The translations under genes and the position numbers were made by a program. This document shows positions 4,655 to 11,340 of a stretch of 11,361 nt of DNA, in pieces (position 1 is the first letter of the stretch; each line of letters begins with the position of its first letter). Under the pieces are notes generated by a model. The model made no database searches. It worked only from the letters and a program-made list of their open reading frames with translations, and had not been told where the DNA came from. The DNA is from Abditibacteriaceae bacterium (lineage in GTDB: Bacteria > Armatimonadota > Abditibacteriia > Abditibacteriales > Abditibacteriaceae): the NCBI GenBank assembly GCA_031425655.1, contig JANPJS010000165.1, positions 1 to 11,361 of the forward strand, written 5' to 3'.

Positions 4655-7069
4655 TCAGGGATAAAGCAAAAACGGCGCGCGTCGCGTGCGCCATGTGGCG
4701 ACATCATTCGCCCAGGGAGCCATGATTTCTTCGGGCGGCGTGCCTTTAAAAATCGCTTCGGGAATGGTTTTATTGCCGACTAAACCGTGCATTAAATCCA
4801 GCGTTTTCGCATCCATATGTTCGGGAAAAAGGCGCGCCAGAGCATCGGCGATGTGAATGCCTATTTCCGTGGGACGATAGATGCGCCGATCCCACAGCAT
4901 AATCTGAATGCCGCCGCAGAGCACACCTTTGTGCTTGCTGGATATGGGCGTGAAACGCGTGGCCCCAAACGAAACACCGGGCAAGCGGCGCGCGTTGAGG
5001 TTGTTGGCTAAAGCTACGCCATCAATCCACGGAGCGCCCACCACTTCAAAAGGCGTATCGGTGCCGCGCCCGACCGAAATCGGCATAAATTCCAGATAAC
5101 CGATGCCCGGATAAAGCGCGGCCTGGCGCACATTGCGAATATTGGGCGAGGGATTGACCCACGGCAGGCCGGTCTGGTCGAAAAGCAGGCGCCGATTCCA
5201 GTTCGGCATTTTTATCACTTCGATCTGCGCGCCGATTTTGCGCTCGGCGTTATAAAGCAGAGCCAGTTCGCCTAAAGTCATGCCGTGGGCAATCGGCATA
5301 TTATGGTAGCCGATAAACCCGTAAAGCTGCGGGTCGAGCAGCGGCCCTTCCACCATTAAACCACCCAGAGGATTCGGGCGATCTAAAACGAAAACTTTGA
5401 CTTTGTGCTGCGCGGCGGCTTCGAGAATATAGCCCAGCGTCGAACTGTAGGTGTAGTAGCGAGCGCCGATGTCCTGAACGTCAAAAACCAGCGTATCAAT
5501 GCCTTTGAGCATGGCACCGGTCGGGCGATAACGCTCTTCTTTAGGCAATCGGGTATTGTAAAGCGAATAGATTTTTAGCCCGGTTTTGGGGTCAACGCTG
5601 TCGGTAATCGTTTCATCCAACTCACCGCGCACCCCATGTTCCGGCGAAAAGAGCGCCACAACATTGAGCTTTTGCGCCACCATTAAATCCACTATGTGCC
5701 GCCCTCGGCGATCCAGCGCGGTGTGATTGCAAACCACACCGATATTCTTACCTTGCAAACGCTGAAAGTTCTCGGCTTCGAGCACTTCCAGACCGGTTTG
5801 AACTTGCACAAAATCCTCCAGCGATGCCGGCAGCGTCGCGGCGATGCGCCCCGGCCCCGGCGGCCTATCTAAAATAGCGGCAGCCAACGCACCCGAAACC
5901 AGACGGCGCAGCGGCGTGAGGGCTGGAATGGCGGGTTTGGCGTGCACTCCGTTGGCGAGCAGAATCACAAAGGTGCGGCTCTGCGGATCAATCCAGAACG
6001 AGGTGCCGGTAAAACCGGTATGCCCAAAAGAGCCGGGCGGCAAGGCGCCGCGAATCGAGTAGCCGGAATCCAAATCCCAGCCAAGACCGCGCGCGTTGCC
6101 GATAAACGGCGACTGTTTCGATGTCCACAGCGCCACCGTTTGGGGTGTAAGAATGCGAACGCCCCCAAACTCTCCGCCGTTAAGCACCATCTGACAAAAG
6201 CGCGCCAGATCATCGGCGGTCGAAAAAATACCGGCGTGACCGGCGACACCACTCAAAGCGAAGGCGGTCGGGTCGTGAACTTGGCCGCGCGTTGCGGGCG
6301 CATCATCGCCGGAAGTCGTCGCGGCAGCGCGCTCGGACAATTCCGGCGCCGGGCGGAAGCCGGTCTCGCTCATGCCCAGCGGCGCGAAAATCGTCTCACG
6401 GCAGTAAACATCCAGTGTTTTGCCGCTTACCGCCTCAATAACGGCGCCTAAAACGATGAAGCTGAAATCCGAATACAAAAACTGCGTGCCCGGCGGCGAT
6501 TTTTGCGGCACAAGCGCGATTTCTTCGATAATTTGCGCCGTTGTGCGCTGTTTTCCGGCATAAGCGCCGCCCGCCGGAAGTCCTGCACCGTGCGTCATCA
6601 AATGGCGAATCGTGATTTTTGCTTTGTCGCCGCCCGCCTTTTCAAAGGCCGGCAAATAGCGGCCTACCGGCGCATCCAGCTCAATTTTGCCTTCTTCGAT
6701 CAAACGCATAACGGCTGTCGAAACGATTGGCTTGGTCAACGAGGCCACGTCGAAGGGCGTATTTTCCTGCATCGCGCGCGGCTGCGGGCGCAGCCCGGCA
6801 AATCCGTAAGCTTTGCGCAGCGCGATGCCGCCGTCGCGCGCCACCAGCAGCACGGCGCCGGGCACGCCTTGTTTGGCGACCGCTTCGCCAACTAAAGAAT
6901 CTGCCACCAAAAGTCGCTCCGGCGATAAACCCAGCGATTGCGGCTCACGGAGTGGCAGAGAAGGCGTGAAAAACGGGGACGAGGAGGCGCTGACCGTTAA
7001 AAGCAAGAGAAAACAAAAACCCGAACTCAGGGTAGAAACGCACCTCGAAGCGGAAGAATTCAAGCGCAT
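4655..7069 (-). CDS. namZ: Fusion of beta-lactamase-fold serine hydrolase (AmiE/YbbE-like) with exo-beta-N-acetylmuramidase NamZ (DUF1343/YbbC), exported
   Basis: N-domain has SxxK (ASLTKP, Ser codon 6740-6742), YSD, VHDP, GVAGHAG and FGHTGFTGT. After a Pro/Ala linker, the C-domain (about 4655-5805) has TGLEVL, NHT, LFSPEHG, DVQDIGARYYTY, LDRPNP, HGMTLGELA, WVNPSPN and SVGRGTDTPFE. Start placed at ATG 7069 (MRLNSS..., then hydrophobic GFCFLLLLTVSA) rather than at 7108. Confidence 0.92.
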   Translation of the reverse strand: MRLNSSASRCVSTLSSGFCFLLLLTVSASSSPFFTPSLPLREPQSLGLSPERLLVADSLVGEAVAKQGVPGAVLLVARDGGIALRKAYGFAGLRPQPRAMQENTPFDVASLTKPIVSTAVMRLIEEGKIELDAPVGRYLPAFEKAGGDKAKITIRHLMTHGAGLPAGGAYAGKQRTTAQIIEEIALVPQKSPPGTQFLYSDFSFIVLGAVIEAVSGKTLDVYCRETIFAPLGMSETGFRPAPELSERAAATTSGDDAPATRGQVHDPTAFALSGVAGHAGIFSTADDLARFCQMVLNGGEFGGVRILTPQTVALWTSKQSPFIGNARGLGWDLDSGYSIRGALPPGSFGHTGFTGTSFWIDPQSRTFVILLANGVHAKPAIPALTPLRRLVSGALAAAILDRPPGPGRIAATLPASLEDFVQVQTGLEVLEAENFQRLQGKNIGVVCNHTALDRRGRHIVDLMVAQKLNVVALFSPEHGVRGELDETITDSVDPKTGLKIYSLYNTRLPKEERYRPTGAMLKGIDTLVFDVQDIGARYYTYSSTLGYILEAAAQHKVKVFVLDRPNPLGGLMVEGPLLDPQLYGFIGYHNMPIAHGMTLGELALLYNAERKIGAQIEVIKMPNWNRRLLFDQTGLPWVNPSPNIRNVRQAALYPGIGYLEFMPISVGRGTDTPFEVVGAPWIDGVALANNLNARRLPGVSFGATRFTPISSKHKGVLCGGIQIMLWDRRIYRPTEIGIHIADALARLFPEHMDAKTLDLMHGLVGNKTIPEAIFKGTPPEEIMAPWANDVATWRTRRAPFLLYP

Positions 7070-7150: not shown

Positions 7151-7271
7151 CCCCATTAAAATGGGGCGCTATTCTTACAAAGTCCGCCTGCGCGGACTAA
7201 ATTTCGAGTCCGCGACCGGGTGCCCCCTGGGCGGGTGACTTCGTAGCGGTAGACCCCGATTTCAATCGGGG
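7151..7271. repeat. Composite REP/REPIN-like long imperfect palindrome
   Basis: Outer hairpins CCCCAT-TAAA-ATGGGG (7151-7166) and CCCCGAT-TTCA-ATCGGGG (7254-7271), the latter preceded by GTAG (7249-7252). Inner hairpin AGTCCGC-CTGC-GCGGACT (7181-7198) has an interrupted inverted copy AGTCCGCG...GACTT (7207-7241). The linking arms match at 11/16 as inverted repeats. Confidence 0.8.
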
Positions 7272-7316
7272 GAGCGAGTGGACGATGCCTTAAGTTGATG
7301 CCTATGGGTCATTAAT

Positions 7317-7820
7317 TCAGGAACCCTTGGTGACTTCGCCCCAAAAGGCATCCATATGGAAGGTTGCGTCATCGCTGAGTTCGCTGCGTTGGTAACGGCC
7401 ATACTTGCCTTCGACTTTGTCCCAGGGCTGCAAAGCAAACTTGATCGTTTGGCCAACTTTATAAGACGCCGCTGGAGTGAGTTTATTGCTGCGCAGGCCC
7501 CACACATAAACTAAAATGGCGCTTTGCATCAGTTTGCCGTGTAATAGTTTTACATGAGTCAGATGAATGGCCGTGATAGCGTCTTTGTAAGGCACGCTGC
7601 CGGGCCGAGGCGTTTTGGCAATCGCTTTGATTTTGCCCTGCACCACTACGATAGTCAGGCTCTTTTTGACCGCTGCGGGCTTGGCTTGAGCCGATTTTGC
7701 CTTGACCGCCTGAGCAAACGTCGCCGAAGCCAGACAGTCGCATAAAACAAACCCACCAAGCGCCAGTGATAAATACTGTTTCCTTCTCGTGGTGTTCCTT
7801 GAAGTATTTATTCTGGTCAT
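7317..7820 (-). CDS. Secreted hypothetical protein, beta-rich; probable accessory subunit of the O-acetylation module
   Basis: 167 aa, 68 nt downstream of the algJ-like gene on the same strand. Basic n-region plus hydrophobic stretch ending ATFA/Q, a Lys/Ala linker, then a compact domain (VVVQGKI...PRPGSVPYKD...ILVYVWG...RSELSDD...FWGE). Confidence 0.75.
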   Translation of the reverse strand: MTRINTSRNTTRRKQYLSLALGGFVLCDCLASATFAQAVKAKSAQAKPAAVKKSLTIVVVQGKIKAIAKTPRPGSVPYKDAITAIHLTHVKLLHGKLMQSAILVYVWGLRSNKLTPAASYKVGQTIKFALQPWDKVEGKYGRYQRSELSDDATFHMDAFWGEVTKGS

Positions 7821-7888
7821 GATTTCTCTTCGTTGTGTTCCAACAGCGCAATTAAAGCTGATTGTTTAGAGCTATTCTCAAAGGCAGG

Positions 7889-9511
7889 TTACGATTGCTT
7901 CTTCGCAGGAGGCAAATCCAGGAGTTTCCAATCGCCGCCGAGCAGATCGCGCATGGCAAACTCCCAGACTACCAGGCGCTTGCCGCGCAGCGGGTCTTTG
8001 CCACGCAATAACTGTTTGCGTAATTCCTGCCGAGTCGCGTAGGCTCCCCCGGCATTGTTGATAATGGAATGCAGGGGACGCTGGAGATAGAAGCTCATCT
8101 GCTCACACAATCCCGCCGATTCTCCCCAGTTCATGGCTCCGAACGAGTAGATATTGCTGAAGCTATCACCGAGCAGCAGAATATCGGCATCGCGCGTGGA
8201 ATACCACGGCTCTCCCTCTGGCGTCAGCACCTGCTGGATTTGCACCCGTTGCTTCTTATAAAGCGTATGCGTCACCGGGAGTTTCAACATTTCAGCGATA
8301 TCGCCCCTGTTGGCAACTGTTTGCGGTTTGCGCGTATAGCCTGTAGCTTCACTTCTCGGCAGTTTGACTTTCTTCTTAATGAAATTGACAAGTGCCCGTG
8401 CCGTCAACTCCATCGCTTCCGGTGTCCAGTGCGTATCAGTTTCCAAAAACTGCGCGCGGCGAGTGCGCTGTTTGGCGCGAAGCAGAATTTCCGAGGGATC
8501 GAAGAGTTTGACCCCTTTGCGCGAAAGTGCCTGACGAAAGGCCGCGTAAGAGGGATTTTGCAAAGGCGGATGCTCGAAAGCGTAGCGGCCCGACATCTTC
8601 TCGGCATGGATTATGGATTTGACGGGAGCGAGCACCACGATGAGGTCAATGCCACGCGCTGCAAGCTGTTGTTTGAACTGCACAATCGCCTGAACCGGGT
8701 CCGGCTGCACCGCTTCATTTTCTGTATCACCACTGCGCTTCCGCACCTGTTGCAGTCCTGCGTCGAGAAAGCCGCGACTGGTGGCGTAATCTACGTCAGG
8801 GCGATAGAGAAGCCAACCCTCACGCCCAATATAGGCTTGTTCATTGCCGACGCCCACCTGCACGAGAAGACTTTGCATCCGGGGCAAAGTCCACTGCACA
8901 ATGAGCGAATCGTCCTGCAGCCTGTTCTCATGCACTTGAAACCGGGAAGCACTGGGGATAAGGCTCCACGCTTCCTGTGGGTTGCGCACTGCGCGAATCT
9001 GCTCTGGCGACGGCAACTCTTGCCAGGCTTCCAAAATAGTCGGCACCGTCTTTGTTTCCGGCTGTTCGCCGGCTGCCATTTGCGCTCGGCGCTCCGCTGC
9101 ACTGCGCCGCACTTCCACCACGCTTTGTAGAACAGGCACGGAGAAAATGGTGATGAGAAAGAAGATTACCAGTGTCCAGCACATGGGACGAGTAATCGCC
9201 GTGTGTTCCAAGGCGAGCTTTGCTTCTTCTTCGCGGCTGATCTTAACTCTGGGTTGCGCCTCCCTGATAAGCCCATGATGCGGTTTGCGGGCTGCTTCGT
9301 CGCTCAGTGCCGCTGTGGGGTTTTCATCCGCATGGTGACTATCGGGATGATATTCATCAATGGGACGTAGGACTTCAGCCTCGGCGGCTGGCTCGTTCTG
9401 AGAGTGGAGATGCTCGTGCTGTAAAAGACCCGTTCGCTCTTCAGGAGAAGTGGCGTCCGGAGGGACTGCGTCCGGGGAGATGCTCTTCTCGTCTTGATGG
9501 TTATTTTTCAT
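7889..9511 (-). CDS. AlgJ/AlgX-family SGNH-like O-acetyltransferase, membrane anchored
   Basis: GREGWLLY, LAARGIDLIVVLAPVK, catalytic DTHW (D-x-H) preceding LLGDSFS (the permuted order seen in AlgJ/AlgX), and VVWEFAMRDL. Single TM (WTLVIFFLITIFSVPVL). Start likely ATG 9511 (MKNNHQ); the ORF track extends to TTG 9532. Confidence 0.88.
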   Translation of the reverse strand: MKNNHQDEKSISPDAVPPDATSPEERTGLLQHEHLHSQNEPAAEAEVLRPIDEYHPDSHHADENPTAALSDEAARKPHHGLIREAQPRVKISREEEAKLALEHTAITRPMCWTLVIFFLITIFSVPVLQSVVEVRRSAAERRAQMAAGEQPETKTVPTILEAWQELPSPEQIRAVRNPQEAWSLIPSASRFQVHENRLQDDSLIVQWTLPRMQSLLVQVGVGNEQAYIGREGWLLYRPDVDYATSRGFLDAGLQQVRKRSGDTENEAVQPDPVQAIVQFKQQLAARGIDLIVVLAPVKSIIHAEKMSGRYAFEHPPLQNPSYAAFRQALSRKGVKLFDPSEILLRAKQRTRRAQFLETDTHWTPEAMELTARALVNFIKKKVKLPRSEATGYTRKPQTVANRGDIAEMLKLPVTHTLYKKQRVQIQQVLTPEGEPWYSTRDADILLLGDSFSNIYSFGAMNWGESAGLCEQMSFYLQRPLHSIINNAGGAYATRQELRKQLLRGKDPLRGKRLVVWEFAMRDLLGGDWKLLDLPPAKKQS

Positions 9512-9545
9512 AGTGTGGTAGGTGCAGTTCAACGATAACGGACGA

Positions 9546-11006
9546 TTAGAAGATGAAATAAATGAACGGGTTATAAGATTGCGTCAGCAAGACCAAAAGC
9601 GAGACCCACAACGCAATCAGGCAGAACGAGACCTTGCCCCATGTCATGTGTTGCGTCCACTCCCAGGCCGATGGGCAACTCCACACGACGATGGCTGCCA
9701 GCGCCATATGGAAGAGATAAAAAGGCTGGTAAAGCAGTCCGCTGATGAGATCGGCCCCCGTCTGGCGCGGCACGAGGCCAAACAGAGACCCCAGGTAATG
9801 GGCCGCGCCGGGCAAATCGGCGGCACGAAAAAAGACCCACGAGAAGAGGACAATCAGAAAGGTCGAGCCGACCCGCAGCGAGTGAGGCAAGCGAGAGTAA
9901 AAGTTATCTCCACCGCGTGCGCGTTCAACAGCGAGCACACCACCGTGGATGCCGCCCCAGATCAAGAAATTCCAGGAAGCCCCATGCCACAGGCCACCGA
10001 TCAGCATCGTCGCCAGAAGATTAATATAGGTGCGCGCCTCGCCTTTGCGGCTGCCGCCCAAAGGGATGTAAAGGTAATCACGCAGCATTGAGGAAAGCGA
10101 GATGTGCCAGCGCCGCCAGAACTCGGTGACGGACTGAGACTTATAAGGCGTCTCGAAGTTCTTGGCAAACACAAACCCCATCAGTAATCCCAGACCAATC
10201 GCCATTTCGGAGTAGCCGGCAAAATCGAAGAAAATCTGAAATGCGTAGGCGACCAGGCCATACCAGGCTTCCAGAGGCCCCACCGGCCCGGCATTAAAAA
10301 CGGTATCCGCGATCTTGCCGCAGGGATTGGCCAGTAGCACCTTCATCGCCAGGCCGAGGGAAAAAAGAGCGACTCCGCGTGCAAATTTATCGAGAGTATG
10401 TGTGCGATGCTCTAATTGATCCGCCAGTTCGGAATAGCGAACTATGGGGCCGGCCACCATCTGTTGATACTGAGCCACGAAGCAAAAGTAGTCATTGAGG
10501 CTCCGCATCGCTTTGGTTTCACCGCGATAAATATCAATGGCGTAACTGATTTCTTGAAAGACATAGAAACTGATCCCAATCGGCAGCGTGACCCGCATCA
10601 CGTTTTCGACCTGGAACTGCGACAATCCCATCCACCCTATCAGAGCATGATAGTTATCCACCGAAAAGTTGAAGTATTTGAAGAAGCCTAAGAGGCCCAG
10701 ATCAACCACAAGGGCTGTCAGCAAAGCGCCCTTTTGAACGCGCGAACGCGGCCCTCCTGGCTCAAGAGCGTGAATCGGCCCGCGCCAGTTATGAAATCCG
10801 TTGTGCGCCTGCACGCGACCCAGCACATAATCGAGCAGCGTCGTCCCTATCATCACAAACAGGAACTGCGGGCTGCCCCAACCATAGAACAGGAAACTGG
10901 TAACTGTCAGCAAAAAATGCCGCGCCGGACGCCACGGACACGGATAATAAAGCAGTAACGAAAACGGTAGAAAGTAGAAGATGAAGATGTAGGAGCTGAA
11001 AACCAT
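9546..11006 (-). CDS. algI: MBOAT family O-acyltransferase, AlgI/PatA/DltB-like
   Basis: 486-aa polytopic protein. MVFSS..F..FLP start, SFLFYGW, FFKYFNF, LPIGISFYVFQEISY, AGPIVR, DFAGYSEMAIG, FWRRWHISLS, GLWHGA (catalytic His codon 9984-9986), C-terminal FIYFIF. The symbol denotes family only; the substrate is unknown. Confidence 0.93.
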   Translation of the reverse strand: MVFSSYIFIFYFLPFSLLLYYPCPWRPARHFLLTVTSFLFYGWGSPQFLFVMIGTTLLDYVLGRVQAHNGFHNWRGPIHALEPGGPRSRVQKGALLTALVVDLGLLGFFKYFNFSVDNYHALIGWMGLSQFQVENVMRVTLPIGISFYVFQEISYAIDIYRGETKAMRSLNDYFCFVAQYQQMVAGPIVRYSELADQLEHRTHTLDKFARGVALFSLGLAMKVLLANPCGKIADTVFNAGPVGPLEAWYGLVAYAFQIFFDFAGYSEMAIGLGLLMGFVFAKNFETPYKSQSVTEFWRRWHISLSSMLRDYLYIPLGGSRKGEARTYINLLATMLIGGLWHGASWNFLIWGGIHGGVLAVERARGGDNFYSRLPHSLRVGSTFLIVLFSWVFFRAADLPGAAHYLGSLFGLVPRQTGADLISGLLYQPFYLFHMALAAIVVWSCPSAWEWTQHMTWGKVSFCLIALWVSLLVLLTQSYNPFIYFIF

Positions 11007-11159
11007 GAGGGTTGCAGTGGGGCCGATGGCGACGTGAAAGCAAATTCAAGCAGCCTTGATTTCAGACAAGAAAGAAGCTTGCCGCCCCAGCATTAAAAAA
11101 CGCCGCCATCAACAATCCGCTGGGTTTCCTTAGAAGCTGTTTGAAAAGTGGCGGCGACT

Positions 11160-11248
11160 CCCTTCCCCTTTGCCGTATCAAGGGGAAGGGCTGGCGGGTG
11201 CCCTCTGGGCAGGGGGTTAAAAAGCCGCAGAACCCCCACCCTAACCCT
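11160..11248. repeat. Purine/pyrimidine-skewed palindromic intergenic repeat (CCCTxCCC...GGGxAGGG type)
   Basis: Perfect 11-bp stem CCCTTCCCCTT (11160-11170) / AAGGGGAAGGG (11180-11190). Second stem GGGGGTT (11212-11218) / AACCCCC (11231-11237), continuing ACCCTAACCCT. Confidence 0.75.
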
Positions 11249-11313
11249 CTTTCCGGTATGGGTTTTTGAAAAACAGGCGTCAAAAAGCCCCGAAATGTGA
11301 AAAACAGAAGCGA

Positions 11314-11340
11314 TGTCATCCTGAGCTTGCGAAGGATCTC
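11314..11340 (+). repeat. REP-like repeat unit TGTCATCCTGAGCTTGCGAAGGATCTC
   Basis: ATCCT (11318-11322) / AGGAT (11333-11337) stem. Resembles the widespread GTCATCCTGAGCGAAGCGAAGGATCT intergenic repeat as I recall it. Any inverted partner would lie beyond the window. Confidence 0.55.

Follow-up and report, generated by a model that had tools for sequence, protein, structure and literature searches.

An 18-nucleotide hairpin element inserted into repeated and mobile DNA of bacteria from two phyla

What kind of DNA is a short motif that interrupts two palindromic repeats on a single bacterial contig? The question is raised by contig C165 of an Abditibacteriaceae genome (G000; 5.98 Mb, 327 contigs, 97% complete), the 11,361 nt of which were analysed as a whole (the window). 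An earlier note had pointed out two 16-mers at 7217-7232 and 11195-11210 that are identical at 15 of 16 positions, lie on the same strand and each contain a GCCC-nnn-GGGC hairpin, and all these details were borne out. The motif itself is real, but its true unit is 18 nt long, CGGGYGCCCTYTGGGCRG (7217-7234 and 11195-11212), with the 16-mer as its core. Sites 1 and 2 lie in unrelated repeat families, as had been stated, each of which also has empty copies. The following features were identified (plus or minus denotes the strand).

7180-7198, minus: left arm of host repeat 1; this copy of the palindromic unit is empty (sequence and fold)
7207-7241, plus: right arm of host repeat 1, filled (sequence and allele comparison)
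7216, plus: additional C 5' of the core, common to 4 copies of this filled allele, net gain +16 (allele comparison)
7217-7234, plus: 18-nt core in the variant that has C10 and G17; stem TGCCC/GGGCG and 3-nt loop (sequence and consensus)
7235-7236, plus: kept fifth target base (G) and one extra base (T), from the empty allele AGTCCGCGM-AGGC-G-GACTT (81 empty copies)
7249-7271, plus: GTAG-tagged, REP-like hairpin after host repeat 1 (sequence and fold; 46 copies of its core)
11160-11250, plus: host repeat 2, a C-rich/G-rich double hairpin (37 empty and 20 filled copies)
11195-11212, plus: 18-nt core, common variant, also an IS110 target with core dinucleotide CT at 11203-11204 (sequence and IS110 junctions)
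11213-11216, plus: run of G made up of the kept base and the right flank, with one G fewer than the +15 rule predicts
11315-11338, minus: unfilled member of the host family that elsewhere is filled more often than any other; its target five-mer spans 11326-11330 (sequence compared with 100 empty alleles)

Frequency and distribution of the motif

A genome-wide count against a Markov background, as the earlier note had proposed, places the motif far above background. G000 contains 322 matches, namely 96 exact, 154 with one mismatch and 72 with two mismatches, where an order-5 Markov model predicts 0.008, 0.3 and 5.5, respectively; at most one mismatch is thus found in 250 matches against 0.3 expected. 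With the 18-nt pattern CGGGYGCCCTYTGGGCRG, 253 exact copies are counted. The window holds 2 matches against 0.03 expected, a number reached in 0/200 shuffles. In the consensus of the 322 matches, conservation runs from position 1 to position 18-20, with no conserved stretch outside positions 1-20, and the 18-nt core forms, equally on either strand, a hairpin of 5 bp with a loop of 3 nt. Grouped by flank, the matches make up about 102 clusters. No sibling micro-elements of similar abundance were seen in G000. The first 10 bases of the core match helix 6 of the 16S rRNA of this genome, which we take to be chance.

The 18-nt pattern is also present in 17 of the 26 other genomes of the family (1-136 copies each), in 5 of 274 genomes from the rest of the phylum (at most 8 copies each) and, within one genus, patchily in 6 of 13 genomes. 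Letter for letter the same motif occurs in two phyla. In the chloroflexotal order Thermomicrobiales, to which G043 belongs, 25 of 121 genomes are positive and 12 have more than 20 copies, a tally that takes in the unpublished G044, G078 and G136. The genome-wide density, with G044 included, is about one copy per 40-125 kb; nothing else reported here draws on these unpublished genomes. Moreover, a Herpetosiphonaceae genome has 45 copies, and the motif was found in 26 stretches of viral contigs, several of which are clear inserts. Controls in which the motif was read backwards gave 0, or 1 in three genomes. Five carriers (G008, G009, G013, G014 and G016) were detected only with the 18-nt pattern.

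That the motif is an adapter, sequencing or assembly artefact, for which a screen had been advised, is scarcely credible. A contig end is 300 nt or less away from 83 of the 322 copies, as would be expected of repeats. Against an artefact, the motif is found in single-contig or few-contig genomes (G011, G009 and G016) and in phage contigs, has natural variants, nested copies and IS110 insertions, and is crossed at site 1 by a contig of another study (X4 record 27) with 3 differences and no gap. The few-contig genomes and this independent contig refute the artefact, and the motif recurs in many independently assembled genomes. Its excess over background, the empty host repeats and its recurrence in such genomes support the proposal that it is a very short dispersed element or a templated scar.

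Junctions and hosts of the insertions

Empty versions of the host repeats, which had been called for, were found by comparison of filled and empty alleles. An empty allele exists in the same genome for 216 of the 317 testable sites of G000; the commonest net gain is +15 (148 sites), with +14 at 23 and +16 at 6 sites, and the remaining pairs are tandem-repeat or chance pairings. At the junction the core takes the place of four target bases, the fifth target base is kept and one extra base is added, which gives the net +15. Among the 33 G000 families that have at least 6 empty copies each, 30 show the fifth target base at position 19; a first wording of the rule, 20 bases in place of 5 ending in G, held for 64 of 66 contexts. 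The kept base is G in 52 of 65 G000 clusters and mixed in Chloroflexota, and base 20 is A in 38% of the G000 and 54% of the Chloroflexota clusters. Target logos are weak; the replaced bases begin with C in 33 and have G in second place in 35 of the 66 contexts. No target-site duplication was observed in filled/empty pairs. Nested self-insertions (19) all occurred at one internal point, and their base 19 is always C or T, as predicted by variable position 11 of the outer copy.

At site 1 the insert indeed lies in a palindrome, as had been described, although as the 18-nt core plus the additional C at 7216. This family counts 81 empty copies, and 4 filled copies of the window variant plus 9 of the common variant (regex counts). 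The direct repeat CGGGT that had been noted here is no target duplication, but a coincidence of the element end, the retained G and the extra T. For site 2 (37 empty and 20 filled copies, by the same kind of count), the replacement of only 3 nt had been predicted from the downstream arm; the actual empty allele, GGGAAGGGYYGG-GGAT-G-GGGTT, differs from that prediction and implies that 4-5 bases were replaced. Other members of this family have 5 G or G-A-GGG at the G run.

In G043 a filled/empty pair was seen directly in an IS701-like transposase, of which the same site carries the element in metagenome locus L304 as well. Of the 25 G043 copies, 10 obey the kept-base rule cleanly; in 3-5 copies base 19 is T where the empty alleles have C, and the remainder are ambiguous or have an extra A before the kept T. 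Orthologous spacers in G001-G003 contain no element and mostly no host repeat either, and therefore yield no allele pair.

Insertions are found in many unrelated repeats and in the element's own copies, in a gene of a tRNA array, in phage DNA and in some ten families of transposases, and single flank clusters hold up to 26 identical filled repeats. Judged by eye, just about 5 of the 102 G000 clusters lie outside repeat families, in a genome where non-repeat DNA outside long ORFs makes up 9% and repeat-masked DNA 6%. These clusters are a tRNA-Arg gene of the tRNA array (at 87 nt rather than 72), remnants of IS1-like and ISAs1-like elements, and two filled repeat domains that we take to be Calx-beta-like, each 5 residues longer. 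No motif copy was found in the two CRISPR arrays of G000 (32 repeats). Ordinary genes are nearly free of the motif, and non-transposase coding sites are mostly linkers with a pre-existing tandem repeat, besides one AlkZ-like and two phage genes.

Elsewhere, in further genomes and in metagenome contigs, 27 insertion sites fall within frames to which Pfam assigns a transposase domain or an HTH of the transposase type (DUF4096, DDE_Tnp_1, DDE_3, DDE_5, DDE_Tnp_1_4, IS66, IS110, ISL3, rve and Tn3). The Pfam scan covered 25, 122 and 148 frames, most of which matched no family, and excluded a few singleton matches in unrelated phyla that look like chance. Sense and antisense insertions in transposase frames occur at 19:8, which rejects a strict sense-strand rule. 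In ISAs1-type genes the same codon was affected in 5 of 5 cases (L033, L086, L230, L382 and C281 of G000), representing at least four diverged sequences. Two to four copies within 1.2 kb are present at 15 of 35 transposase loci (16 if one doubtful match is counted; L127, whose second copy sits in a flanking repeat, was left out), and share one orientation at 11 of these 15, whereas the genome density predicts multi-copy loci at a few percent. The 35 loci were chosen after inspection, 3 of them being below the Pfam cut-off and 8 presumably transposases by motif resemblance, and the multi-copy loci include related IS copies (L322/L344 and L169/L280). The metagenome scan took in solely copies followed by a fixed three-base word, and its flank logos are biased accordingly. 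Transposase-like DNA contains 1 copy in 7 kb and 1 in 11 kb, as against 3-4 candidates in about 5 Mb of other coding DNA.

The presence of two or more copies at 15 of the 35 transposase loci suggests that mobile DNA is the target, and not hairpins in their own right. Part of the bias is explained by purifying selection in ordinary genes and by amplification together with the host repeats. The idea that the motif is written preferentially into hairpin DNA is too narrow: insertions also occur in tandem repeats of heptamers, in coding sequences of transposases, in Calx-beta-like domains and in genes of phages, and the folding profile gives no more than a weak indication that a hairpin ends directly upstream of the sites.

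A passenger, the search for an enzyme, and possible explanations

One insertion sequence uses the motif as its target. In G000, 9 of 9 left and 10 of 10 right IS110 ends lie within the motif, at its CT (19/19 junctions), as do 10 of 10 full IS110 copies in G016, which have a 380-aa ORF; 4 copies carry an extra CT. A Transposase_20 domain was identified in the IS110 fragment of G000, of which the body is absent from the short-read assembly. The left end contains a predicted stem with an internal loop in which the motif's left half and the complement of its right half are present. A transposase, a CT core and a putative bridge RNA with guides matching the target are all in keeping with the IS110 family, and the motif serves as its landing pad, to which the predicted bridge RNA would guide the element. 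A homologue in the motif-free G121 targets another repeat, and close homologues were not found in G001, G002 and most positive Chloroflexota; the IS110 therefore follows the motif and does not make it. That the motif is the footprint of this element, as the position of all its G000 ends and G016 full copies and the four extra CTs might imply, is very improbable. This is contradicted by the homologue distribution, the G121 target and the four bases overwritten at unrelated sites, for which such a footprint gives no account; besides, the sections of PMC11208160 on excision and targeting describe IS110 elements as scarless on excision and often aimed at existing repeats.

Candidate enzymes were searched for in carriers and relatives, many assemblies of which are incomplete and drop repeats. 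The reverse transcriptase domain RVT_1 had no match in G000 (97% complete), G001 (85%) and G002 (93%), assemblies that may omit repeats, and is broken in G003; motif-free relatives have one. Y1_Tnp (PF01797) was not found in G041, G042, G060, G063, G073 and G086, i.e. 6 of 10 positive Chloroflexota. Piwi (Argonaute) was detected in 1 of 37 genomes, a motif-free one, and in none of the positive genomes, Ku in 0 of 37, the LigD polymerase domain above cut-off in 1 of 22 positives and NucS in 1 of 44 genomes. The sets taken as motif-free in the searches for Y1_Tnp, the IS110 homologue, Piwi and Ku included the five carriers detected only with the 18-nt pattern; the conclusions rest on absence from carriers and hold. 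The distribution of the element is not followed by that of reverse transcriptase, Y1/RAYT, Argonaute, Ku, LigD or NucS, each of which was not found in most or all carriers searched; they include the co-occurring reverse transcriptase and RAYT transposase that the earlier note had advised looking for. A scar of NHEJ or of a mismatch endonuclease was rejected, as Ku, LigD and NucS were not found in most or all carriers searched and no polymorphism peak was seen at a fixed offset; the latter also argues against heteroduplex-mismatch targeting. We found no unique conserved copy that could serve as template or master, no gene consistently flanked by the element, no shared neighbour gene, and nothing plausible among the matches listed of the 351 proteins shared across the phyla with 1.88 of 5.2 Mb (36%) of G043. 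A replication-strand bias suggested by a thinned list is not supported by the full lists (10 leading and 17 lagging in G011, p 0.25; 26:24 in G000), which together with a sense bias of just 19:8 leaves a single-strand substrate unsupported.

We lean towards the view that the motif is a gene-less 18-nt hairpin micro-element of repeated and mobile DNA, probably pasted by a trans-acting nick-and-fill machinery. It has a fixed sequence, overwrites its targets without duplication at independent sites, nests in itself, favours repeated and mobile DNA, clusters in transposases and serves an IS110 as landing pad. The order of core, kept base and extra base would most simply result from top-strand synthesis or joining into a 4-5-base gap, with an untemplated base added before ligation. 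In such a scheme the top strand would open over 4-5 bases and a preformed or templated 18-mer would join the free 3' end, possibly helped by weak CG microhomology, after which one target base would be copied, one untemplated base (mostly A) added and the nick sealed. The substrate may be DNA exposed while mobile or repeated elements move or pair, and a single episode may stamp one molecule several times; filled repeats would then multiply through the host repeat's own spread. Counting against this reading are the G043 copies, of which just 10 of 25 follow the kept-base rule cleanly, the different kept base preferred in G000 and Chloroflexota, and the fact that no enzyme, template or master copy was found.

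A more far-reaching version, tentatively put forward, is that an undescribed DNA-writing system shared by two phyla repeatedly stamps repeated and new mobile DNA with the 18-nt hairpin, by a new chemistry in which four bases are overwritten and one is added, and that one IS110 has in turn redirected its guide RNA to this mark. Such stamping could be host defence, sensing repeated or incoming mobile DNA and inserting a fixed sequence to cripple transposases and phage genes, like fungal repeat-induced mutation. The clustered, mostly co-oriented copies in some ten unrelated transposase families would suit this, as would those in phage contigs (26 stretches), the tRNA-array gene and the two Calx-beta-like repeat domains, and patchiness within a genus (6/13) with identity in two phyla is typical of horizontally moved defence systems. 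We nevertheless consider defence doubtful: a gain of +15 preserves the reading frame and is a weak means of killing genes, most copies are in non-coding repeats, the two CRISPR arrays with their 32 repeats are free of them, an IS110 exploits the mark, and neither Piwi nor any such system was found in positive genomes.

A selfish micro-transposon might instead insert nearly at random, with a weak sequence preference, while selection clears useful genes and host repeats amplify the rest. Weak target logos, clusters of up to 26 identical filled repeats and housekeeping-gene copies confined to linkers with an existing tandem repeat agree with this. It is unlikely, however, in view of the mere 5 or so of 102 G000 clusters outside repeats, where such non-ORF DNA exceeds the repeat-masked part, of the density in transposase-like DNA (1 per 7 kb and 1 per 11 kb) relative to other coding DNA (3-4 candidates per about 5 Mb), and of the 15 multi-copy loci among 35. 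Finally, a reverse transcriptase (retron-, DRT- or group II-like) might write the 18-mer from a small RNA, the extra base being a terminal addition. The single untemplated, mostly A, base at the 3' junction and a hairpin that folds equally on both strands are compatible with it, and multi-copy RT genes can drop from short-read assemblies, as the IS110 body does here. The distribution of RVT_1, without match in G000, G001 and G002, broken in G003 and present in motif-free relatives, and the lack of a template locus among our findings make this improbable.

Comparison with known systems

In fungi, repeat-induced point mutation concentrates change on repeated DNA and leaves several marks per copy. 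That process makes point mutations in eukaryotes, whereas here a fixed insert is found in bacteria, for which homology sensing is putative. With HIP1 and uptake sequences the motif has in common that it is an over-represented short lineage-specific word. According to the passages on HIP1 in PMC5861425 and PMC13756078, HIP1 introduces no indels and is conserved in coding regions, whereas the motif adds 15 bases and avoids ordinary genes. The earlier suggestion of a HIP1- or uptake-like signature is unsupported, because the motif inserts rather than substitutes and is nearly missing from ordinary genes.

REP/REPIN-RAYT systems, as outlined in extracts of PMC3733652 and PMC3116915, resemble the motif in being short hairpins of high copy number and patchy distribution, in serving as IS110 target and in having intragenic copies. 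The 18-mer differs in having no GTAG or CGTC tag, no doublets and no adjacent tyrosine transposase, and it is not itself a REP-like repeat but has such repeats as hosts. Membership was rejected on the absence of a tag from the consensus, of Y1_Tnp from 6 of 10 positive Chloroflexota and of a flanked gene. Neither is the element a MITE, as its ends are not complementary and bases are replaced, not duplicated. Bridge-RNA elements of the IS621 type, in the part of PMC11208160 that covers their layout, are like the IS110 passenger in the arrangement of the bridge RNA with left and right target guides, and not like the 18-mer.

Ever since the description of the Nostoc repeats, it has been an open question by what means elements of some 20 bases move. 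The junction reported here (four bases out, one kept, one extra in) is precise and fits no transposase, recombinase or retroelement rule checked. With carriers and non-carriers in one genus, the enzyme can be searched for by comparison of gene content. If one enzyme does insert the same short sequence at many unrelated sites with no duplication, its chemistry would be new, and if the clustering in transposases reflects targeting, it is a new way to control mobile DNA.

Small dispersed repeats of Nostocaceae are embedded in heptamer repeats and nested. The SDR1-8 families were reportedly described by Elhai et al. 2008 (Genome Res 18:1484). Citing papers (PMC5861425, PMC4390886, PMC13756078, PMC3116915 and PMC2884548), in the passages devoted to these repeats, present them as about 20 nt long, dispersed, gene-less and inserted into other repeats, with SDR5 as a precise insertion into HIP1; the account in PMC5861425 mentions no SDR-like repeats outside Nostocaceae among HIP1-rich cyanobacteria. 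No cyanobacterial copy of the motif is present among the matches listed (80 titled records), and no description of the motif or its junction was found in the literature searched, mostly outside subscription papers. The claim that no named element behaves this way is half right, since these Nostocaceae repeats are a close precedent. We conclude that the motif is a real, very small mobile element of a kind known from them. As far as the descriptions in citing papers go, it resembles the SDRs in its dispersal, its length of about 20 nt, its sharp ends and diverse flanks and its filled and empty sites, and it differs from them in overwriting four bases and adding an extra one, in having no fixed target word, in its occurrence in two other phyla and in its clustered copies in transposases.

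Genes and tRNAs

Between positions 158 and 11006 of the window, the genes around the copies of the 18-mer (the hairpin micro-element) appear ordinary on translation; we take them to encode a phosphatase-like protein, MFS and sodium-solute transporters, an 817-aa hydrolase fusion and an alginate acetylation-like pair. Elsewhere in the same assembly (G000), a copy with one mismatch, which may be an insertion or a chance match, lies in frame within a tyrosyl-tRNA synthetase-like gene (contig C139, position 443). A kinase-like gene and its small partner (C314, 12515-13676) show 54-56% identity to a pair in the Thermomicrobiales carrier genome G043, exceeding that of most genes common to the two genomes.

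Seven tRNA genes on one strand form an array at locus L128 (G000, C61, 85-845), and the 18-mer sits in its tRNA-Arg(TCG), the sole TCG tRNA among those listed by ARAGORN. A copy in the phage contig L432 lies within a tRNA-like stretch (6430-6520), for which no Rfam match was obtained at the gathering threshold.

Other repeats in the genome

The 18-mer was not found in either of the following CRISPR arrays of G000, presumably type I-E-like:

C194, 109-840: CRISPR array, 13 repeats of 29 nt
C240, 12884-13982: CRISPR array, 19 repeats of 29 nt

Two 18-mer copies (C13, 12476; C109, 21412) are truncated by the end of another repeated element, whose 21-nt core has 53 copies in G000.

In the list of empty alleles, one allele of the host-repeat family at C16, 13092, a single sighting, has another hairpin insert, 24 nt long, where filled copies have the 18-mer. 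It begins with CGGG and ends with GGA, as does the 18-mer insert, and is possibly a sibling element.

IS110 directed to the 18-mer

An extra CT, possibly the scar of imprecise excision of the insertion sequence IS110, is present in four 18-mer copies of G000. IS110 with a clean bridge RNA targeting the 18-mer was observed at G000 contig ends (C65, C66, C70, C88, C97, C101 and others); an IS110 in the carrier genome G016 (L141, 608-1900) likewise has a clean bridge RNA directed to it.
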